Made by a program: the position numbers and the translations under genes. A stretch of DNA of 64,000 nt from an uncultured virus (IMG/VR IMGVR_UViG_3300025138_000017) (taxonomy: Duplodnaviria > Heunggongvirae > Uroviricota > Caudoviricetes). Of this stretch, positions 35,281 through 64,000 are shown in pieces. Numbering within the stretch: position 1 is the first letter of the stretch; each line of letters starts with the position of its first letter. A model generated the notes under the pieces. It saw only the letters and a program-made list of their open reading frames with translations, did no database searches and was not told where the DNA came from. The stretch lies in IMG/VR virus record IMGVR_UViG_3300025138_000017, one strand, 5' to 3'.

Positions 35281-35357
35281 TGGCCTGCCTGGTAGGACTT
35301 GAACCTACAACCTATAGCTTAGAAGGCTATTGCTCTATCCAGTTGAGCTACAGGCAG
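35281..35357 (-). tRNA. tRNA-Arg (anticodon UCU)
   Basis: Full cloverleaf: CTGCCTG acceptor stem, GCTC/GAGC D-stem, ATAGC-CTTCTAA-GCTAT anticodon arm, GTAGG-TTCAAGT-CCTAC T-arm, encoded CCA. Confidence 0.96.
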
Positions 35358-51133: not shown

Positions 51134-51397
51134 TTAGTCGTACGTGCCCCCGTCGATATCCATTCCTGTATTAGCTAAAGTAAATGTATCGTTGGCTGAA
51201 TCGTAAACTAACATACCATTATCTACTTCTGGGTCAGTATCAACATCTAATAAATCTTTAAGATTAGCAGATGATAATGAACTACTTGTAGTTACGGTAA
51301 AAACGTTTGTTGTATTTAATTGATTGTGTTCTATACCACCACTTGGTATTTCAACTTTCAAGTTTAATGCTGCATCATTGAATAAGGTATTACTCAT
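51134..51397 (-). CDS. Small virion-associated protein
   Basis: LKDLLDVD...LVYDS...IDGGTY motifs typical of phage fibre modules. Confidence 0.6.
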   Translation of the reverse strand: MSNTLFNDAALNLKVEIPSGGIEHNQLNTTNVFTVTTSSSLSSANLKDLLDVDTDPEVDNGMLVYDSANDTFTLANTGMDIDGGTYD

Positions 51398-51729
51398 TAC
51401 TTGGTTACCTCTGGGGTCACAGTTACCATCCCCTCTAATATTCTGGATTTAATTCCACCACTGTTAGTTAGCTCAGCATCGTAAACAAATCTACCTGCAT
51501 TCATAGCAGCTGTTGTAGCATTGTTTAATGCTAATGTCAATGTTGAGTTGGCAGTGGATAGTGTAGCTGTAAAAGCTGTGGAATTAGATGAAGAAAAAGT
51601 TTTTCTTATTTGAGCAGCTGCAGAGTATCCAGACAGGTTTACGTTTGTACCCGCTGCATCTTTTAAATTAACTGTCGTAGAAAAGTCTGTGCCTTGATCT
51701 ATTATTATATTAACCTTAGTGGCCATCAA
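51397..51729 (-). CDS. Ig-like/BppU-like virion protein
   Basis: NIIIDQGTDF...GRFVYDAEL...RILEG. Confidence 0.65.
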   Translation of the reverse strand: MMATKVNIIIDQGTDFSTTVNLKDAAGTNVNLSGYSAAAQIRKTFSSSNSTAFTATLSTANSTLTLALNNATTAAMNAGRFVYDAELTNSGGIKSRILEGMVTVTPEVTK

Positions 51730-54234: not shown

Positions 54235-57200
54235 TTAAGCTGTTCTAACCCATAGTTTTAATGTTGTTATTGTTTCTGTACCAGCCTGTACTGTTTGTCC
54301 AGCATATGCATGAGTATAGGTTCCTTCGTATTGGGCTACAAAGTTAGTTGTAAATGAACCCTCATATGCTTTTTCATATTGTTTAGTGTATTGGCCAATG
54401 TATGCTTTTTCGTATTGTGTTGTAAATGATCCCTCAAATAATTGCGTATAGGTCTTAACATAGTTACCTGTAAACTGCTGATCAAATTGACCAGAGTATG
54501 ATTTTTCATACAAGCCAACATATGCTTTTTCAAATTGTTGAGTAAACTGACCTGTAAATGTTCCTTCGTAATCTTTAGAATATATTTTTAACCAAGTACC
54601 AACATATGATCTTTGGAATTCGCCTTCATATTGTTTAGTATATTGACCAAGATATTCGCCAGAGTATTGGCCAAGGAATGATCCAACCCAAGCCTTTTCA
54701 AACTGTCCTACATATATGCCTTCATATTGTTTGTTAAATGATCCTTCAAACTGTTTACTAAATTGTTTTGCATATTGTTTAGTATATTGTCCTGTGTACT
54801 GTCCTAAGTATGACTTGACGTATGAACCAGTAAACTCACCTTCATATGTTTTAGTATATTGTCCAACATATGATGCACCAAATTGGCCTTCAAAAGTTCC
54901 TGTATACTGTCCAATATATGTACCTTGATATATTCCCTGGTATGCATGTGCACCTTCATATATTCCTGTCCAGTATCCTATGTATACTCCTTCATATGTT
55001 TTTTCATACTGTCTTGTAAACTGGCCAGTGTATTGGCCATCATATTGTCCACTAAATGTTCTGTCACCTGTCCATTGCTTGGCATATGCTTTCTGATAGT
55101 TTGCACTTACATATGTTGTGTTGAAGACTCCTTCCCACTGATGAGCATATTGCCCCTCGTATGATCTGTCTCCTTCAAATTGACCTGCATATTGTTTTAC
55201 ATATTCAACTACAAATACCTTTTGATAATTAGCTGAGTATTGTCCTGTATATGTTCTTGATCCAGAGTATGCTTTGGTATAGGTTTTATTAAATACTCCA
55301 GTGTATTGAGTGCCATACTGACCTGTATATGTTCTGTCGCCTTCATATTGTTTAGCAAATTGGCCTTCCCAGTTTCTAGCAAACGAACCTTCATATGTTT
55401 GACCATATTCTTTTTGATAGTTCTTAGTATAAGCTCTAGCGTATTGGCCTACAAACTGCGTATTGAATACTCCAACATATATTCCTTCGTATAATGTTAA
55501 GTATGTTTTGCCATATTGTCCAACAAATGATTTTAAGTAATCAGTTGTAAATGATCCTTGATATGATTTAGTATAGTTAGTATCAAATGAACCTTCATAT
55601 AATGCTAAGTATTGTTTATTGAATTGGCCTTCGTATGCTTTAACGAACAATCCAGTATATGTTTTAACATATGATGTTTCAAATACACCTTCATATGCTT
55701 TTTCATAATTAGTTGCAAACTGCCCTTCATAAGTTTTTTCGTAATTAGTTCCAAACTGGCCTGTGTATGTTGTGTCATAGTTTGTAGCAAATTGACCTTC
55801 ATACAGTTTAGCATATTGTACTCCAAACGCACCCTCATATTGAGTAGTATATTGGCCTTCATATGCTTTAGCATATGTAGTATTGAAGTCTCCTTCGTAT
55901 TGAGCTACATAATCTTTAGCATAGTTTGTACTAAATATTCCTTCATACAATTTAGCATATTGTGTAGAAAACTGTCCTTCATATGCTTTAGCATATTGTT
56001 GTGTATAGTTAGTTGTGTATGTTCCTTCAAACACACCACCGTATATGTTTGTATATTGACCAATGTATGCTTTTGCATATTGCTCACTAAATTGTCCTAA
56101 GAATGCTTTAGAGTATGATCCAGTATATGCTTTTGCATATTGCTCAATATAATCTTTAGAGTAGTTGTCTGTAAATGCACCAGTAAACTGACTAGCATAT
56201 TGTCCAAGATATGCTTGAGCATAGTTGACTGATTCCCCACCTGTAAACTCTCTTGCATAAGAACCTGTATATGTTTTCTGGTATTGGTTAACATAGTTCT
56301 TAGCATAGTTATCTGTAAACTGTCCTTCGTATACATCTGTATATTGGCCTACATAATTCTTAGTATAATTGGTAGTATATGTTCCTTCAAACACTCCACC
56401 GTATATGTTAGTGTATTGACCAACATAGTTCTTAGCATATTGTGTTTGATATATTCCTACAAATGCTTTGGTGTAAGTTCCTGTATAATCTTTTTGGTAA
56501 TTAGTAGAATATATTTTTGTATAGTTATCTGTATACTGGCCAGTGTACTGTCTGTCATAGTTTCCAGCATAAGTTTTAACATATTCAGTTACATAATCTT
56601 TAGCATAGTTATCAGCAAATTGTCCTGTAAACTGTCTATCATAATTACCCTCATATTGCTTAGCATATTGAGCAATATAATCTTTAGCATAGTTGTCTGT
56701 AAATTGACCTTCATATGCTTTATCAAAATTCTTTATATATGATTTAGCATACTGTGTGGTATAGGTTCCTTCGAAGACACCACCATATATGTTCGTATAT
56801 TGACCAACATAATTCTTAGCATAATTTTCTGTAAACGCACCTTCGTATTGAGAAACAAATACACCCTCATATGTTTTAGTGTATTGTGTTGTGTATGCTC
56901 TTTCATATGAAGCTGCAAACAATCCTACATACTGACCTTCAAATTGTCCTTCATAGTTAGTAGCATATTGTCTTTCCCAGTTTTTAGTATAGTTGGTCGT
57001 AAACAATCCTGTGTATTGGTCTGTAAATTGACCTACGAATGCTTTTGTATAGTTTCCAGTATATGCTCTATCATAGTTGCCCGTATAGTCTCTAGTATAA
57101 TTGGTTGTATATTGAGCATCAAATGATCCAGTAAATTGACTTGCATATTGTCCAACATAATTTTTGGTATAGTTAGTTGCATATGATCCAGCAAACACGC

Positions 57201-60200
57201 CACCGTATATGTTTGTATATTGACCAACATAGTTCTTAGTATAGTTTGTTACATAATCTCTAGAATAATTGGTTGTGTATACTCCAACATATGCTTTTGT
57301 CCACTGACCTGAATATGCTTTTTGGAAGTTCTTATTATAGTTACCAGTAAACTGTCCGGCAAACCCTCTTGAGTATTGACCGATCCATTGTTGAGCATAG
57401 TTGGTTACAAACGTACCCGCAAACACGCCTTCATATATATTTGTATATTGACCTACATATGCTTTCTGATAAGCAGTAGAGTAAGTTCCGTCAAACGAAC
57501 CACCATATATGTTTGTGTATTGGCCTACGTATGCTCTTTGATATGCTGTGTTATATGTTCCTGAAAATGCACCTTCATAGATATTCGTATATTGACCAAC
57601 ATAGTTTTTAGTATAATTGGTTGCATACTGGCCAGTAAAGGTTTTAGTATATTGACCAGTGTATTGTTTTAAATAGTTAGTAGCATATTGACCAGTATAT
57701 GTTTTAGTATATTGTCCTGTATATGTCTTAGTATAATTTACATCATAGTTTTTAGTATAATTGGTTGCATACTGACCAGCAAACGCTTTTGTATATTGAC
57801 CTGTGTACTGTTTTAAATAGTTTCTAGTATATGTTCCACTAAACTGTGTATTGTAAGTTCCAGAATATGCTCTATCATAGTTTCCAGCATAAGTCTTAGT
57901 GTAATTACCAGTATATGATTTTGTGTATTGACCAGTATATTGTCTTAAAAAGTTGGTAGCATACTGACCAGAATATCCTTTAGTATAATTACCAGTATAA
58001 GAACCTGTATACTGTCCAGTGTATGCTCCAGTATATTGACCTGCATATGCTCTTTGATAGCTAGTGTCATATTGTTTTAAATAGTTTTTATTATATGAAC
58101 CACTAAACTGCTTAGTATATTGACCAGTATATTGTTTTAAATAATTGGTTCCATACTGGCCAGCAAATTGTCTATTATATGTACCACTAAACTGTTTGTT
58201 ATAGTTACCTGCATATGCTCTAGTGTAGTTAGTTGCATATGTTCCACTATATTGTGTAGCGTATGTTCCTGTGTACTGTCCAGAATAAGCTGTTGAGAAA
58301 TATCCTGTATATTGTTTAGTATAGTTGCCTGTAAATTGTCCTGTGTACTGTCCAGTAAATCCTCTAGTATATTGTCCTGTATACTGTCTTAAATAGTTAG
58401 TACTATAGGACCCTGTATATGTTGTACTAAAGTATCCTGTATACTGACCTGAATATGTTGCAGTAGTTTGAGAGAAACAACCTTCGTATTCTTCAAAGTC
58501 ATCATCACCAGTATCAATAAAGATTCTACAATATGTACCACCACTACTGAATTGTTGAGATACTGACCCTACAAATGTTCTAGTATAGTTAGTTGTTTTT
58601 ACATAGTTTAAAAATTGGCTCCCAAATTTACTAGAGACAACCCTGTTGTAAGTTACATTACCAGCAAACTGTCTAGTATAATTTACATTTGCAGTACCAG
58701 TAAATTGTTGAACTGCCCCAACATAGTTTCCTGTATATTGAGTAGATCTGGTTACTCTTACATAGTTTCCTGAATAAGCTCTTGTATAGTTGGTTCCATA
58801 TGATCCACTATATTGTGAATTATATGTTCCGGAAAATTGACTACTATATGTTCCAGCAAATTGTTTTGAGTAGTTTGTAGTTCTAGTTACCCTAGAATAA
58901 CTTCCTGTCCATTGTCTTGAGAAGTTTCCTGTATACTGTCCTGTGTATTGTCTTGTATAGTTAGTGCTGTAATATCCAGTATATGTCTTAGTATAGTTTC
59001 CTGAATATGCTTTTGTATAGTTACCTGTATACTGTCTTAAAAAGTTAGTACCATATGTTCCACTATACTGTGCTGAGTATTGACCTGTGTACGATCTAGT
59101 AAAGTTAGTTCCATATTGTCTTGTATAGTTGGTAGCATAGTATCCTGTATACTGTCCAGAATAGGTTCCACTATACTGTCCTGAATATGCACCAGAGTAT
59201 GCTCTGTCATAATTTCCTGTATAATGTTTAGTATAGTTAGTTCCATATGTTCCAGCAAATTGACTGGTGTACGTGCCACTATATGCTCTATCATAGTTTC
59301 CAGTATATCTTTTAGTATAGTTACCTGTATATGATTTAGTATATTGACCTGTGTATGCTTTTTGGAAGTTAGTACCATACGTTCCACTATATTGAGAACT
59401 ATAGTTACCTGTGTACTGTCTTTGATACTGAGCCGTATAAGTTTTTAAATAGTTTTTATTATAGTCACCAGAGTATGCTCTGTTATAGTTTCCCGTATAA
59501 TGTTTAGTATAGTTAGTTCCATATGTTCCAGAATATTGTTTATTGTAGTTACCTGTATACTGTCTAGTATAGTTAGTAGCAAATGACCCTTCCCATATTC
59601 TATCATACTGTCCTATATAAGAACCAACATATGCTTTAGTATAGTTTCTAGCAAATGATCCTTCCCATATTCTATCGTATTGTCCTACATAAGATCCAAC
59701 ATATGCTTTAGTATAGTTTCTAGTAAATGATCCTTCCCATATTCTATCGTATTGTCCTATGTACTGACCAACATATGCTTTCTGATATTGAGCTGCGTAT
59801 GGTCCTAAGAATGTTCCTGTGTATACTCCAGTCCATTGCGTCTGGAATAATTTAGTATAGTTGGTATTATATACGCCAGTGTAGGTGGTGTTATAGGAAC
59901 CTTCATATGCTTTCTGATATTGTTTAACATAATTCTTAGCATAGTTTGTAGCAAATGAACCTTCCCAGATTCTATCATATTGTCCTACATATTGGCCAAC
60001 ATAGTTTTTAGTGTAATTCTTTGCAAACGTTCCTTCGAATGCTCCTGTGTATTGTCCTAGCCAAACTTTAGCATATTGCTTTGCATATGCTTTTTGATAT
60101 ACGCCTGTATATGTTTTGGTGTATACGCCTGTAAATATTGTAGAGTATACTCCTTCCCATATCTTGGTGTACTGGCCTTCATACTGTGCAGCCCATTGTA

Positions 60201-63200
60201 CAAGATATGCTTTTTGATATTGTTTTGTATATACTCCAGTCCATTGTTTTGCATATGAACCTTCCCACTGTTGTGCGTATGCTGCAACATATTGTTTAGC
60301 ATATTGTTTTGAATACTGACCGACATAAGCCTTTTCATATTGTCCAAGGTAAACTTTATCATATTGGGTAACAAATGTTCCTTCCCATATTCTATCATAT
60401 TGGCCTACGTATTGGCCAACATATGCTTTCTCGTATTGTTTTGAATAAGCCTTTTCATATGTTTTTACATATTGTCCGGTCCACTGTTGTTGATATTGAG
60501 CAACATAGTTTTTAGCATAGTTGGTTGTATACTGTCCTGTGAATCTTCCTTCGTATTGTCCAGCCCATTGTTGTAGGTATTGGGCAACATAGTTTTTAGC
60601 ATATGCAGTTTGGAATTCACCTGCATATCTTTTTTCGTATATTCCTGTCCACTGTTGCTGGTATTGTGCTGCATAGTCTTTTTGATACTGACGAAGATAA
60701 ACACCAACATAGTCTGTCTCATAAGATCCTTCATAATCTTTGGTGTATTGAGTAACAAACGTACCTTCCCATATTCTATCGTATTGTCCTATGTACTGAC
60801 CAACATATGCTTTTTCGTATTGTTTAGCAAATGTTCCTTCCCATTGCTTAGTGTACTGACCTGCCCATTGTTGTTCGTATTGGGTTACATAATCTTTAGC
60901 ATAGTTAGTATTATAGTCGCCATCAAATGCTCTTTCGTATGCACCAGCATATGCCTTTTGATATTGTGTTACAAACTGGCCTTCAAATGCTCCTGTGTAT
61001 TGTCCTACCCATTGTTGCTGATATTGCTTAACATAATTCTTAGCATAGTTGGTTTCATAGTCGCCAAGATATGCTTTAGAGTATGAGCCTTCGTATTGTT
61101 TATCGTATTGAGTAACAAACGTACCTTCCCATATTCTATCGTATTGTCCTACCCATTGACCAACATAAGCCTTTTCATATTGCTTACTATATTGTTTTAC
61201 ATATTGACCAATGTAATCTTTTGTATATTGAGCTACGTATTGACCAACATATTCTTTTGTATATTGTGCAACATAGTTCTTAGCATATTGTCCTGTGTAT
61301 GCTTTTATATAATTTGTAGTATACTGACCACCATATTGACCAGCATAGAGACCTACATATGCTTGGCCCCAGTTTTGTTCATATAATCCTGTGTATTGAT
61401 TAATCCACGTCTTACCGTATACGCCTGTATACTGTTGAAGATAATTACGTGCGTAGATTCCTGCATACTGTTTTAAGTATTGTGTTGCGTATTGGCCAAC
61501 GTATTGTTTAGCATAACCTTTGTTCCAATTACTTAAATAATTCTTTTCATAGGATCCAACATATGCTTTCTCCCATATTCTATCATATTGGCCAACATAT
61601 GTCTTTGTGTATTGAGCTTCGTATATTCCAACATAATCTTTTGTGTATGTTTTTATATACTGGCCTATGAAATCCTTTTCGTAGTTCTTAATATAAGAAC
61701 CTACATAAGCTCCTTCAAATGTTTTTTGATATGCTCCAACATAATCTTTATTATATGATGTAACATAATCTTTTATATAACCAGCAGTATAGTTACCAAC
61801 ATAATTAGCTTCTAAGAAATATCCTGAGAATAATTCTGAAGCACTATCATATTGTCCAGTGAATGTTCTATCACCTTCGTATTGTTTTGTATACTGACCT
61901 GTATATGCTTTTAAGTATCCTTGAGTATAGAAACCATTATATTCTCTATCACCCTCGTATGCTTTTGTAAATTGCTTTTGATAGTTTGTACCAAGATACC
62001 CTTTACTAAAGTTTTGAGTAAATTGGCCAGTGTATGTTCTTGTTCCAGTATATTGTTTTGTGTATTGACCTGTGTATGATGCTGTCCAATTACCAATATA
62101 TATTTTTTGGTATTGATCTGCATACTGTCCTGTATATGTTCTACTACCAGCGTATGTGCCTTCGTATGAGCCCGTATACTGCTTTGCATATTGCTCAACA
62201 TACTGTCCCGTATAGTTAGCTGCGAAAATGCCTTCAAACTGTTTTACGCCGGTGTAATACCCTGTGTATTGTCCATCGAACGAGCCTTCAAATTGTTTAG
62301 AGTATGCTCCAGTCCATTGTTGGCCAAATGATCCTTCATATTGTTTACTATACTGTCCTGTGTAAATTCCTGTATAAGTTGTATTAAAAGATCCTTCAAA
62401 TACACCTTCGTATATTTTACTGAATGTTCCTTCAAATTGGCCTTCGTATTGCCCCAGGTATGCACCCATGTACTGTCCAGCAAACGCTCCGGAATATTGG
62501 GAAATAAAGAATCCATCAAACGAGCCTTCATATTGCTTAGTAAATGAGCCTTCGTATTGTTTGCTGTACAGACCAGTATAAGACTTAAGATATATTTTAT
62601 CATATTGGCCAACATACTGTTTAACATATACGCCTGTATATGTTCCTTCAAAAGAACCTTCGTATTGGGTTAAGAATGTTCCTTCGTATTGTTTTGTGTA
62701 GTTTCCAGAAAATGAACCTTCATACAATCCGGTATATGTTTTATTAAAGTTTCCTTCATATTGTCCAATATATTCTTTTGTATATTGGGAAACAAAGACA
62801 CCCTCATATTGTTTTTCGTAATGGTGTGTGTATATACCGACATATTGCTTTGCATATTGAGATGCATATTGGCCAACATAGTTTGTATTGTATCCTATAT
62901 CAGCTAAAGTGTTTCTATTATCAACAAATGATCCACCTACTTGTACCCAGGTCTCACCTGAAGCTGCAGGGTTAGTCGCTGATAATTTATATTGTCCTAT
63001 ACCAGTAGCATATATTTGATTTCTCAATCTCATTGCTAATAGTTTTATCTCTGCATCGGACATCTCTTTAATTGCAGAGTTTTGAATTTTTGCTGTTCTA
63101 ACAACAGAAGGTGCAGAAACACCTTGGGTCTTACGCCATAAGGTATATGTAGTCGTACCACCTAAAGTGGTATCGGTCATTGTGGATCCAGTACTTGTAT

Positions 63201-63639
63201 AAAGGCTATTGTTGGGATTTGTTTCAGACAAGTGGTAGGATCCCAAACCGGACGATGTAAGATTCGCAAGTGCTCTTGATATAAGGACAGAGTTTAGAGT
63301 ATTACTATGCTCAGATGCATAGCCGCTGTCATTAAGAAACAATGGGTACACCATAGATGTTTCTGCGATCGAATTGAGATTTTGTTTAAGTGTATATGTT
63401 TGGGACGTTATATTATTAGCAGCTGGATGAGTACCTACGCTTTCTGTTCTATAGGTATCAGTGAAAGAACCCATTGAGGTTCCCTGTCCATTTATGTTTA
63501 AAGTACCAAGGCCAGAAGTGCTTGTTGAGAATTCAGATAGAATTTGATGGACGGCGTAATCCATCTCGGTAGTCTGCATTTCCTGCACACCGAGAAAAGT
63601 ACCCCCTCCGGTCGTTTTTATTCTAAGTGGATTTCCCAA
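54235..63639 (-). CDS. Giant (3134 aa) aromatic tetrad-repeat protein with mirror-symmetric arms; putative beta-hairpin fibre
   Basis: Uninterrupted 9.4 kb ORF with TTG start. Residues ~250-3112 carry Y/F/W at every 4th position. Central C1704-C1721 acidic loop. Confidence 0.85.
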   Translation of the reverse strand: MGNPLRIKTTGGGTFLGVQEMQTTEMDYAVHQILSEFSTSTSGLGTLNINGQGTSMGSFTDTYRTESVGTHPAANNITSQTYTLKQNLNSIAETSMVYPLFLNDSGYASEHSNTLNSVLISRALANLTSSGLGSYHLSETNPNNSLYTSTGSTMTDTTLGGTTTYTLWRKTQGVSAPSVVRTAKIQNSAIKEMSDAEIKLLAMRLRNQIYATGIGQYKLSATNPAASGETWVQVGGSFVDNRNTLADIGYNTNYVGQYASQYAKQYVGIYTHHYEKQYEGVFVSQYTKEYIGQYEGNFNKTYTGLYEGSFSGNYTKQYEGTFLTQYEGSFEGTYTGVYVKQYVGQYDKIYLKSYTGLYSKQYEGSFTKQYEGSFDGFFISQYSGAFAGQYMGAYLGQYEGQFEGTFSKIYEGVFEGSFNTTYTGIYTGQYSKQYEGSFGQQWTGAYSKQFEGSFDGQYTGYYTGVKQFEGIFAANYTGQYVEQYAKQYTGSYEGTYAGSRTYTGQYADQYQKIYIGNWTASYTGQYTKQYTGTRTYTGQFTQNFSKGYLGTNYQKQFTKAYEGDREYNGFYTQGYLKAYTGQYTKQYEGDRTFTGQYDSASELFSGYFLEANYVGNYTAGYIKDYVTSYNKDYVGAYQKTFEGAYVGSYIKNYEKDFIGQYIKTYTKDYVGIYEAQYTKTYVGQYDRIWEKAYVGSYEKNYLSNWNKGYAKQYVGQYATQYLKQYAGIYARNYLQQYTGVYGKTWINQYTGLYEQNWGQAYVGLYAGQYGGQYTTNYIKAYTGQYAKNYVAQYTKEYVGQYVAQYTKDYIGQYVKQYSKQYEKAYVGQWVGQYDRIWEGTFVTQYDKQYEGSYSKAYLGDYETNYAKNYVKQYQQQWVGQYTGAFEGQFVTQYQKAYAGAYERAFDGDYNTNYAKDYVTQYEQQWAGQYTKQWEGTFAKQYEKAYVGQYIGQYDRIWEGTFVTQYTKDYEGSYETDYVGVYLRQYQKDYAAQYQQQWTGIYEKRYAGEFQTAYAKNYVAQYLQQWAGQYEGRFTGQYTTNYAKNYVAQYQQQWTGQYVKTYEKAYSKQYEKAYVGQYVGQYDRIWEGTFVTQYDKVYLGQYEKAYVGQYSKQYAKQYVAAYAQQWEGSYAKQWTGVYTKQYQKAYLVQWAAQYEGQYTKIWEGVYSTIFTGVYTKTYTGVYQKAYAKQYAKVWLGQYTGAFEGTFAKNYTKNYVGQYVGQYDRIWEGSFATNYAKNYVKQYQKAYEGSYNTTYTGVYNTNYTKLFQTQWTGVYTGTFLGPYAAQYQKAYVGQYIGQYDRIWEGSFTRNYTKAYVGSYVGQYDRIWEGSFARNYTKAYVGSYIGQYDRIWEGSFATNYTRQYTGNYNKQYSGTYGTNYTKHYTGNYNRAYSGDYNKNYLKTYTAQYQRQYTGNYSSQYSGTYGTNFQKAYTGQYTKSYTGNYTKRYTGNYDRAYSGTYTSQFAGTYGTNYTKHYTGNYDRAYSGAYSGQYSGTYSGQYTGYYATNYTRQYGTNFTRSYTGQYSAQYSGTYGTNFLRQYTGNYTKAYSGNYTKTYTGYYSTNYTRQYTGQYTGNFSRQWTGSYSRVTRTTNYSKQFAGTYSSQFSGTYNSQYSGSYGTNYTRAYSGNYVRVTRSTQYTGNYVGAVQQFTGTANVNYTRQFAGNVTYNRVVSSKFGSQFLNYVKTTNYTRTFVGSVSQQFSSGGTYCRIFIDTGDDDFEEYEGCFSQTTATYSGQYTGYFSTTYTGSYSTNYLRQYTGQYTRGFTGQYTGQFTGNYTKQYTGYFSTAYSGQYTGTYATQYSGTYATNYTRAYAGNYNKQFSGTYNRQFAGQYGTNYLKQYTGQYTKQFSGSYNKNYLKQYDTSYQRAYAGQYTGAYTGQYTGSYTGNYTKGYSGQYATNFLRQYTGQYTKSYTGNYTKTYAGNYDRAYSGTYNTQFSGTYTRNYLKQYTGQYTKAFAGQYATNYTKNYDVNYTKTYTGQYTKTYTGQYATNYLKQYTGQYTKTFTGQYATNYTKNYVGQYTNIYEGAFSGTYNTAYQRAYVGQYTNIYGGSFDGTYSTAYQKAYVGQYTNIYEGVFAGTFVTNYAQQWIGQYSRGFAGQFTGNYNKNFQKAYSGQWTKAYVGVYTTNYSRDYVTNYTKNYVGQYTNIYGGVFAGSYATNYTKNYVGQYASQFTGSFDAQYTTNYTRDYTGNYDRAYTGNYTKAFVGQFTDQYTGLFTTNYTKNWERQYATNYEGQFEGQYVGLFAASYERAYTTQYTKTYEGVFVSQYEGAFTENYAKNYVGQYTNIYGGVFEGTYTTQYAKSYIKNFDKAYEGQFTDNYAKDYIAQYAKQYEGNYDRQFTGQFADNYAKDYVTEYVKTYAGNYDRQYTGQYTDNYTKIYSTNYQKDYTGTYTKAFVGIYQTQYAKNYVGQYTNIYGGVFEGTYTTNYTKNYVGQYTDVYEGQFTDNYAKNYVNQYQKTYTGSYAREFTGGESVNYAQAYLGQYASQFTGAFTDNYSKDYIEQYAKAYTGSYSKAFLGQFSEQYAKAYIGQYTNIYGGVFEGTYTTNYTQQYAKAYEGQFSTQYAKLYEGIFSTNYAKDYVAQYEGDFNTTYAKAYEGQYTTQYEGAFGVQYAKLYEGQFATNYDTTYTGQFGTNYEKTYEGQFATNYEKAYEGVFETSYVKTYTGLFVKAYEGQFNKQYLALYEGSFDTNYTKSYQGSFTTDYLKSFVGQYGKTYLTLYEGIYVGVFNTQFVGQYARAYTKNYQKEYGQTYEGSFARNWEGQFAKQYEGDRTYTGQYGTQYTGVFNKTYTKAYSGSRTYTGQYSANYQKVFVVEYVKQYAGQFEGDRSYEGQYAHQWEGVFNTTYVSANYQKAYAKQWTGDRTFSGQYDGQYTGQFTRQYEKTYEGVYIGYWTGIYEGAHAYQGIYQGTYIGQYTGTFEGQFGASYVGQYTKTYEGEFTGSYVKSYLGQYTGQYTKQYAKQFSKQFEGSFNKQYEGIYVGQFEKAWVGSFLGQYSGEYLGQYTKQYEGEFQRSYVGTWLKIYSKDYEGTFTGQFTQQFEKAYVGLYEKSYSGQFDQQFTGNYVKTYTQLFEGSFTTQYEKAYIGQYTKQYEKAYEGSFTTNFVAQYEGTYTHAYAGQTVQAGTETITTLKLWVRTA
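54304..62892 (-). repeat. Degenerate 12-nt periodic coding repeat with higher-order units
   Basis: Codes [Y/F/W]xxx tetrads (YTGQ, YEGS, YTKN and similar); near-identical DNA blocks recur, e.g. at 60751-60790 and 61111-61150. Confidence 0.9.
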
Positions 63640-63643
63640 TTTA

Positions 63644-64000
63644 CTAAGCCTTTAATTTAAACGCGCTATCCCCAAATACGCTACCAGTATTTATAAAACT
63701 TACTCGACTAGCATCATAACCTATTATAGCTGATCCTGGCTCGCCTCCGTTTCCTGACTGTGCGTATTGAGAATAGTGGGTTCCTGGGTTAGCAACATTC
63801 TGTGATGCATCTGAGTCATCATTATACCCGCCTGCACCTGTTCCTAGTTGACCTAGTAATCCACCATTTCCTCCATGTATGCCTAATGCTGTGGATGCAT
63901 TAGTGCCATTTCTATCTGAACTGCTTTCTGAAATGAAAGCTCCTGAATTCCATCCAGCACCAGTTCCACCGATGCCTCCAGAGCTACTTACTCCGTTTAC
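63644..64000 (-). CDS. C-terminal part of a glycine-rich protein, resembling a T-even gp38-type adhesin (5' end outside the window)
   Basis: Translated by hand: SSGGIGGTGAGW...GGNGGLLGQLGTGAGG...GNGGEPGSAIIGYDASRVSFINTGSVFGDSAFKLKA*. Confidence 0.6.
   Translation of the reverse strand, partial: VNGVSSSGGIGGTGAGWNSGAFISESSSDRNGTNASTALGIHGGNGGLLGQLGTGAGGYNDDSDASQNVANPGTHYSQYAQSGNGGEPGSAIIGYDASRVSFINTGSVFGDSAFKLKA
63688..63695 (-). promoter_or_regulatory. Late promoter TATAAATA for the giant gene
   Basis: Exact consensus about 50 nt upstream of the TTG start, inside the upstream gene's 3' end. Confidence 0.6.

Follow-up and report, generated by a model that had tools for sequence, protein, structure and literature searches.

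A stretch of 64,000 nucleotides (nt) of DNA from an uncultured virus of the Caudoviricetes (IMG/VR record IMGVR_UViG_3300025138_000017; the whole stretch is below called the window) harbors a giant gene that encodes a protein of 3134 amino acids (aa). We lean, by a modest degree, towards the view that this protein is a very long fibre, folded back on itself, which carries at its tip a variable acidic hairpin that is stapled by a pair of cysteines and is likely to be a contact surface. The role of the protein as a fibre is well founded by its context, i.e., by the neighbouring fibre-type genes, and not by homology.

The cysteine loop and the tip module

Translation and a residue count show that the protein has exactly two Cys residues, C1704 (58528-58530) and C1721 (58477-58479), which bracket the 16-residue loop RIFIDTGDDDFEEYEG with a net charge of -6. 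An earlier note on this DNA had placed a Cys-closed acidic loop at a predicted fibre tip (58440-58900, i.e., residues 1581-1734), and its count of two bracketing Cys residues is confirmed. Two randomly placed Cys residues would be found within 17 residues of each other with a probability of 0.011 over 3134 residues, which rises to 0.092 when their placement is restricted to the 369 non-repeat residues. Because of the latter value the proximity of the two residues is, by itself, only suggestive, and it is the comparative data that carry weight.

Most of the protein is a ladder in which every fourth residue is aromatic. This ladder is unbroken over residues 613-1581, is bulged by the motifs SRVTRTTNY and VRVTRSTQY, ends at residue 1626 and resumes at 1729. 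The proposal that the tetrad register is broken just upstream of the loop is borne out, i.e., these two motifs and YNRVVSSKF (1664-1672) coincide with the loss of the ladder. The SRVTRTTNY motif recurs near the centre on both arms in the homologous loci L007 and L011.

The canonical EF-hand has a 12-residue liganding pattern, which was used for a comparison by eye. On DTGDDDFEEYEG neither this nor a DxDxDG-type Ca2+ pattern was matched by eye, with Gly or Phe at required liganding or forbidden positions. An EF-hand Ca2+ loop was rejected based on this mismatch and on the lack of a Pfam match. The loop may bind Ca2+, its charge being the sole positive evidence.

Tip modules and cysteine pairs in relatives

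Homologues were obtained from IMG/VR, metagenome contigs and protein collections. Those that share the window hairpin have the conserved flanks SSGGTY...QYTGYFSTTY, and the C...C pair is common only to the window protein, L001 and L021. The residues aligned to C1704/C1721 are S/Y in L002, I/F in L022 and P0002, and H/Y in L023 and L026; the conserved Cys pair for which the earlier note had proposed a test is thus not borne out among the homologues. These five Cys-less hairpins have 15-residue, Gly-rich, uncharged loops, and the net charge is 0 or +1 in the five, compared to -6, -5 or -8 in the four Cys-closed loops of this hairpin. The closed loop of L025 (Cx22C) is longer and more acidic, with a charge of -8; it is taken to be the chain turn only because it is the sole non-tetrad gap of that fragment. 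The sequence of P0002 starts with MCIRDS and ends with HIRDHET, which is a database artefact and not biology; these ends presumably reflect sequencing-adapter read-through, which they resemble.

Cys pairs also recur, independently, in other types of tip, as Cx12C in L016, L024, L029 and L030, while L036 has two pairs. In the complete L016 protein the pair (1352/1365) straddles the mirror axis at ~1361.5. Among 22 centres, 13 have no Cys, eight have two and one has four, and the arms have none; this set holds duplicates (L011 is identical to L028, and L032 to L033), and the window is nearly identical to L001. In 79 complete, more distant representatives there is no Cys beyond residue 260 in 72, a single one in six and two in one.

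The central modules are very diverse: they are Pro/Gly-rich in L003 and L011, there are several smaller types, and in P0143, P0145 and P0147 globular inserts of 466-634 aa are found exactly at the midpoint. One motif in the P0145 insert is, in our estimate, reminiscent of LamG/ConA-like lectins; a Pfam search with the large-centre relatives, this insert included, gave no match. A search for homologous proteins with the tip gave none among proteins of near length and only two among shorter ones, and no new tips emerged when IMG/VR was scanned a second time with the alignment of the hairpin. The Cys pair is a recurrent, lineage-specific addition to tip modules rather than a family feature, and it is best read as a putative disulfide staple that accompanies acidic loops.

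Variation at the loop apex

The apex of the loop is a microdiversity hotspot. Over 15.6 kb the locus L001 is 99.87% identical to the window at the nucleotide level, and its giant protein differs at four of 3134 positions: A74S, A1650V, D1713S (GAT>TCA) and F1715N (TTT>AAT). Three of these four residues belong to the tip, and two of the three to the loop; the probability that at least two of four would fall in the loop by chance is 1.6e-4. The giant gene has 12 real nucleotide differences, and five of them cluster within 9 nt at the loop apex, in codons 1713 and 1715. The suggestion that the loop varies between strains is therefore strikingly upheld.

Contigs from four runs of four studies cover 58200-59000 (801 nt) and have six listed variable positions, all of which are non-synonymous and confined to codons 1650, 1713 and 1715; there is no listed synonymous change. 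At these three codons the haplotypes are A-D-F (the window and run X6), V-D-F (X2), A-S-F (X3) and V-S-N (X4 and L001), where X2 may be the source sample of the window. The more distant L021 (89% identity over 341 aa) has the haplotype V-S-H, i.e., F1715H, and in addition T1710M and E1719D. Compared to L021, synonymous codon changes outnumber non-synonymous ones in the arm segment 1285-1628 (22 to 12), while the opposite is seen in the tip (5 to 16; Fisher p=0.005); the loop has no synonymous and four non-synonymous changes (codons 1710, 1713, 1715 and 1719). A second variable patch in the tip is found at residues 1662-1680.

A diversity-generating retroelement (DGR) was considered as the source of the variation. 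In the 64-kb window there is no second copy (template repeat) of the loop DNA and no open reading frame (ORF) with a reverse-transcriptase (RT) YxDD motif, and the changes (GAT>TCA, TTT>AAT/CAT) are not adenine-specific; this candidate was rejected.

Mirror symmetry of the arms

The tetrad runs of the window protein are mirror-symmetric around the tip module: 54/8/8/4/6/243/10/centre/185+74/6/7/5/9/54. The same kind of pattern is seen in L002 (54/../211/7/C/225/../52, where C is the centre), L003 (112/8/8/4/147/C/146/7/5/9/112), L016 (112..96..C..94..112) and L019 (232/C/238), such that the arm lengths co-vary between homologues, i.e., both sides change together. In the window protein each of seven DRIWE motifs in the first arm (834...1346) has a TNIY[GE]G partner in the second (2530...2018), and in every pair the two positions add up to 3364; one of the eight DRIWE motifs (686) and one TNIYGG (2434) have no partner. 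In L002 all four pairs fit a sum of 3067, with spacings that are different from those in the window. The Trp of DRIWE mirrors the Gly-Gly of TNIY[GE]G residue-exactly (54304-62892), and the four kinks per arm are mirrored as well: four G[DST]R[TSE][YF] kinks are found in the outward-arm hinge zone 463-612 (at 498, 532, 563 and 589) and four in the return-arm zone 2766-2899 (at 2767, 2793, 2823 and 2858).

An unbiased mutual-information scan gave best position sums of 3366 for the window protein and 3069 for L002, with Tyr opposite Tyr and Gly opposite Gly; the mirror axis at ~1683 that had been proposed earlier is thereby reproduced. On the fragmentary loci L024, L025, L029 and L030 the scan gave no clear peak. 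The position of the largest non-repeat gap was determined for 87 sequences (the 79 complete representatives and eight long homologues), of which the 64 with at least two tetrad runs were evaluated and the 23 with fewer were dropped. The median position is 0.50 along the repeat body, with 47 of the 64 inside the interval 0.4-0.6. Six of the eight long homologues have the gap at 0.499-0.506 and the other two (L014 and L017) have no large gap; in the window protein the tip module is found at 0.499.

Taken together, these data make it very probable that the two arms pair antiparallel in register, and the mirror-exact arms also argue for a chain reversal at a distal domain. It is quite likely that the chain folds back on itself with residues 1629-1727 at the distal end, which supports the earlier suggestion of a distal, chain-reversing centre.

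Structure models and fold searches

An AlphaFold2 (AF2) model of the 448-aa family member P0038, based on a 53-sequence alignment, has a mean predicted local distance difference test (pLDDT) score of 73. Its head has pLDDT >90, and long, confident strands of the start of the first arm (242-266) and of the end of the second arm with the C-terminal tail (414-446) are found beside the head, while the middle is unreliable. With this model as the query, Foldseek returned no match at E<=1e-3 in either PDB or BFVD. In a VIA wide search the best Z score was 7.1, for beta-prism/MABP-type domains of MACPF proteins, which is below the caution line of 8, and the model is left without an assigned fold; the VIA alignments span residues 41..448 of the model as one unit. 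Sequence searches in PDB gave no match, and a search of the ESM Atlas gave only unnamed viral clusters at scores <=0.82.

Proposed architecture and alternative explanations

In the architecture that we propose, the N-terminal head of ~250 aa and the conserved C-terminal strand would be found together at the proximal end, from which two arms of ~1380 residues, with Tyr, Phe or Trp at each fourth residue, would run out and back, antiparallel and in exact register. An arm of up to ~1380 residues would measure ~0.45 um if fully extended. The ~100-aa non-repeat module 1629-1727 would be the distal tip, and residues 1703-1722 would form a beta-hairpin within the chain, homologous to the Gly-turn hairpin of relatives. 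In the lineage of the window the turn would have been converted to a strongly acidic 16-residue loop, and a cross-strand pair to Cys-Cys. A C1704-C1721 disulfide would most likely form after release into oxic seawater and keep the self-repelling loop closed, where bound divalent cations could possibly also help to hold the acidic turn shut. The exposed apex (D1713, F1715) would be under diversifying selection, which makes it most likely the contact surface for a host receptor or for whatever the tip binds.

A number of observations weigh against parts of this architecture. The midpoint of the loop, at 1712.5, is offset by ~30 residues from the axis, such that the position at the turn that the earlier note expected is not upheld; the Cys loop is instead just one part of a tip module of ~100 aa, and the hairpin 1703-1722 would be one of at least two hairpins in the module. 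L002, the closest full-length relative with a different tip type (79% head identity), does not have the Cys pair, which is therefore dispensable for the fold. Furthermore, Cys parity is imperfect: there is a single Cys (449) in the centre of P0144, and six of the 79 distant representatives have one Cys beyond residue 260. Assembly of fibres in a reducing cytoplasm weighs against a disulfide. The run data are assembled contigs and not reads, and the X6 piece that covers 58781-59000 has three differences without an assigned position. Finally, an AF2 model of residues 1500-1840, based on a four-sequence alignment, is unusable (mean pLDDT 26.5), such that the tip geometry and the orientation of the loop are left unsupported by it; the strands that DSSP assigns in this model (1703-1709 and 1716-1722, pLDDT ~30) and the Cys pair have a common centre.

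The Cys residues could be incidental free thiols and the segment a poorly constrained surface loop that drifts neutrally, consistent with the lack of the pair at the homologous positions in L002, L022, L023, L026 and P0002, with the single Cys of P0144 and with a chance of 0.09 for the proximity of the residues among the 369 non-repeat residues. This explanation is unlikely, given that several separate tip types have even Cys counts while thousands of arm residues are without Cys, and that the pair is kept in the window protein, L001 and L021 while four intervening loop residues change. In addition, multi-nucleotide codon replacements, together with the lack of listed synonymous changes in 801 nt, argue against neutral drift. 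About as improbable is a loop that acts mainly as a structural Ca2+/Mg2+ site stabilising the tip in seawater rather than as a receptor contact. A net charge of -6 over 16 residues, the acidity (-8) of the independently closed L025 loop, and the co-occurrence of Cys staples with acidic rather than Gly-rich loops are all consistent with such a site. However, an EF-hand or DxDxDG-type pattern is not seen by eye, there is no Pfam match, and D1713 is replaced by Ser in three of five haplotypes and E1719 by Asp in L021, which would be unusual for liganding positions; relatives also manage with uncharged loops.

Because mirror symmetry alone cannot discriminate between intra- and inter-chain antiparallel pairing, the arms could also belong to different chains that pair antiparallel, head to tail, in an oligomer; a head would then be found at either end of the rod, and the centre in its middle and not at a tip. 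The monomeric AF2 model of P0038, where the start of the N-terminal arm and the end of the C-terminal arm are found beside the same head, and the VIA alignments that cover this model as one unit speak against such an oligomer. In addition, the centre is the site both of module swapping (the 466-634-aa inserts of P0143, P0145 and P0147) and of strain variation, which fits better with an exposed end; we regard inter-chain pairing as improbable. A similarly small probability is assigned to the possibility that the variable loops are a docking site for an adhesin or chaperone encoded downstream (cf. T2-type gp38 on the gp37 tip) and co-evolve with that partner instead of with the host. Three unannotated downstream genes are syntenic with the giant gene, and the 177-aa product is the most rapidly diverging, with identities of 72% in L002 and 51% in L003, compared to 88% and 70%, respectively, for the next gene. 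Yet, the window and L001, in spite of their different loops, have versions of this protein that are 99.4% identical, and the 280-aa and 258-aa proteins contain Cys and look enzyme-like, with a weak Nucleotid_trans match (E=0.07) for the former.

With the folded-back fibre as the preferred description, a broader proposal can be made more tentatively, and we hold it to be somewhat less likely to be right than wrong: the giant protein may represent an undescribed fibre class in which a single chain folds back along its full length to give an antiparallel aromatic-ladder ribbon, in register and with swappable tips at the fold, and in which the Cys-stapled hairpin is a host-specificity determinant that evolves in marine populations by rapid multi-nucleotide replacement of two apex residues.

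The fibre family, the locus and neighbouring genes

The giant protein is composed of 17% Tyr, 12.7% Thr, 11.7% Gly and 9.9% Gln, and it has no match in Pfam at E<=1 or in PHROG at E<=1e-5. The head is 55-79% identical to that of IMG/VR homologues (alignment A1), and a profile search with the head gave 398 representatives at E<=1e-3. The C-terminal ending pattern T-x-x-L-W-[VLI]-R-[TVI]-[AS] is present in the window protein and is shared by 79 of the 150 best representatives. Thus, the window protein has all three marks of an unnamed family (head + tetrad arms + LWVR(T/V)A tail), i.e., the head, two equal arms and the C-terminal ending. Members of the family cluster are unnamed or named "hypothetical protein". 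In the phage collection, searched using megablast and tblastn, the sole match is Phage C48C1 (OQ984149.1), where the relative is annotated as "hypothetical protein" (L020:11012-21055). This relative is a protein of 3347 aa whose head and TYTLYVRVA ending are the same; its tetrads are of the YxRxRxSxY type, several globular domains are scattered among them, and a segment near residues 2010-2150 is duplicated internally. The 725-aa protein P0003 is headed by a globular domain like those of the C48C1 relative. P0004 turns out-of-frame-looking after approximately residue 560, which is a database artefact and not biology. Literature searches found no publication on this fibre family; the libraries are incomplete, so an unpublished status is not proven by this result.

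The window has a G+C content of 35.6% and almost every gene is found on the minus strand. It holds a T4-like myovirus module that comprises DNA polymerase, clamp, clamp loader, UvsX/UvsY, neck proteins of the gp13/14/15 type, terminase, sheath, tube, portal, protease, scaffold and major capsid protein, and of these gp13/14/15, sheath, tube, portal and the major capsid protein are encoded downstream of the giant gene. The capsid protein shares 63-73% identity with its counterparts in the marine T4-like phages S-SKS1, Melnitz, Mosig and P-TIM40 and in Stenotrophomonas phage DLP6, which identifies the window phage as an uncultured marine member of the T4-like group. Auxiliary genes that are usual in marine T4-like phages are found at 1-34000: QueD/QueE-like, peptide deformylase, Hsp20, two 2OG-Fe(II) oxygenases, Nol-like carbamoyltransferase, cytidylyltransferase and heptose kinase/adenylyltransferase-like. 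A tRNA-Arg (anticodon TCT) is encoded at 35281-35357 (-) between a tail-tube-like gene and the head genes, in a stretch of 810 nt without an ORF of at least 80 aa.

Among the nine loci compared, the 280-aa and 258-aa genes are found downstream of the giant-gene homologue in eight (Phage C48C1 included) and the 177-aa gene in six. The three products are candidate assembly or modification factors. The sub-threshold match of the 280-aa protein is to a nucleotide-diphospho-sugar transferase domain, and the fibre might therefore be glycosylated or modified in another way. Upstream of the giant gene in L002 there are PHROG matches to the long tail fibre distal subunit and to tail-fibre host specificity. 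In the window, the gene upstream of the giant ORF (63644-64000) is truncated by the window edge; its counterpart in relatives is a second Tyr-rich protein (9-12% Tyr) of at least 780 aa, e.g., 952 aa in L002 and 1188 aa in L003. The upstream protein of L002 (L002:7136-9991) has its match to the tail-fibre host-specificity PHROG at the C-terminus. The coordinates of all features are collected in Table 1.

Table 1. Features of the giant fibre gene and of its surroundings in the window.
Feature	Position	Strand	Basis or remark
Giant fibre gene	54235..63639	(-)	3134 aa, translated ORF
N-terminal globular head, residues 1-248	62896..63639	(-)	Conserved family domain, alignment A1
Outward arm, aromatic tetrad ladder, residues 250-1626	58762..62892	(-)	Tetrad runs, seven paired DRIWE motifs
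SRVTRTTNY one-residue bulge motif, residues 1582-1590	58870..58896	(-)	Register break
VRVTRSTQY bulge motif, residues 1627-1635, entry of tip module	58735..58761	(-)	Register break
Non-repeat tip module, residues 1629-1727, 99 aa	58459..58755	(-)	Sole interior non-tetrad gap
Codon 1650 (A or V), third polymorphic tip codon	58690..58692	(-)	L001 and metagenome contigs
C1704-RIFIDTGDDDFEEYEG-C1721, putative disulfide-stapled acidic beta-hairpin	58477..58530	(-)	Residue count, alignment
Hypervariable apex, codons 1713-1715	58495..58503	(-)	1713 is D or S; 1715 is F, N or H
Return arm, tetrad ladder, residues 1729-3112	54304..58455	(-)	TNIY[GE]G motifs, mirrored kinks
C-terminal tail ending TETITTLKLWVRTA	54238..54303	(-)	Ending conserved family-wide
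Three genes downstream of the giant gene, 177, 280 and 258 aa	52088..54180	(-)	Syntenic with the giant gene in 5 to 8 of nine homologous loci
110-aa LtfC-like / tail-fibre-assembly-like protein	51397..51729	(-)	phrog_1084, phrog_3304; PF23926 at E=1.5e-4, below its cut-off

Significance and relation to known systems

Variable loops at fibre tips decide host range, and here this variation is narrowed to a pair of codons in a marine T4-like lineage that is abundant and uncultured. The fibre family is without annotation or a solved relative, with a match in only one record of the phage collection searched, and its unusual architecture is worth a structure. The mirror-exact pairing of the arms provides a rule, applicable from sequence alone, by which the business end of any family member is the midpoint. 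The Cys staple is biochemically simple to test, and the natural D/S and F/N/H variants could be used for binding studies given a host.

Of the known designs, the tip of the T4 long tail fibre protein gp37 is the closest. The chain of gp37 is said, in work attributed to Bartual et al. 2010, to run to a distal domain and return, with the receptor-binding part in the middle of the sequence and antiparallel strands in the shaft. A likeness to the giant protein would lie in this chain reversal at a distal domain, and the setting of T4-like baseplate and fibre genes is shared as well. In contrast to gp37, the giant protein has a period-4 aromatic-ladder repeat and a tip closed by a Cys pair, and the whole repeat body of ~2760 residues, rather than just the last ~150 residues, would be folded back; there is no match to gp37 in sequence, family, Pfam, PHROG or PDB. 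HxH iron motifs are also lacking, i.e., none of its 11 His residues (31, 71, 111, 136, 272, 273, 1380, 1472, 2833, 2898 and 3110) are spaced i, i+2. For the needle domain of gp37, PMC6957217 gives seven iron atoms.

An architectural likeness, without any implied homology, is found to SMC/Rad50 in the mirrored interruptions of the arms. In these proteins the N- and C-terminal halves pair antiparallel, interruptions are mirrored between the arms and a functional domain is located at the fold-back. However, the composition of the fibre suggests tetrads of a beta type instead of heptads, and, unlike these ATPases, it is a component of the virion. DGR target loops (e.g., in Bordetella phage Mtd) are similar in that hypervariation is localised in a phage receptor-binding protein, but the window has neither a template repeat nor an RT motif, and the changes are not adenine-specific.

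In phage adhesins such as T2/T6-type gp38 and the T7 gp17 tip, short surface loops at the fibre end vary between close strains while the scaffold is conserved, and the changes at residues 1710, 1713, 1715 and 1719 are of the same nature. The giant protein is not homologous to these adhesins, and its loop differs from theirs in being acidic and Cys-bracketed, without the scaffold of glycine-rich motifs of gp38, with the qualification that the Cys-less relatives of the window hairpin do have Gly-rich turns. A variable loop of receptor type is of a known kind; what is new is the acidic, Cys-stapled form that it takes here, together with the fibre on which it is found.

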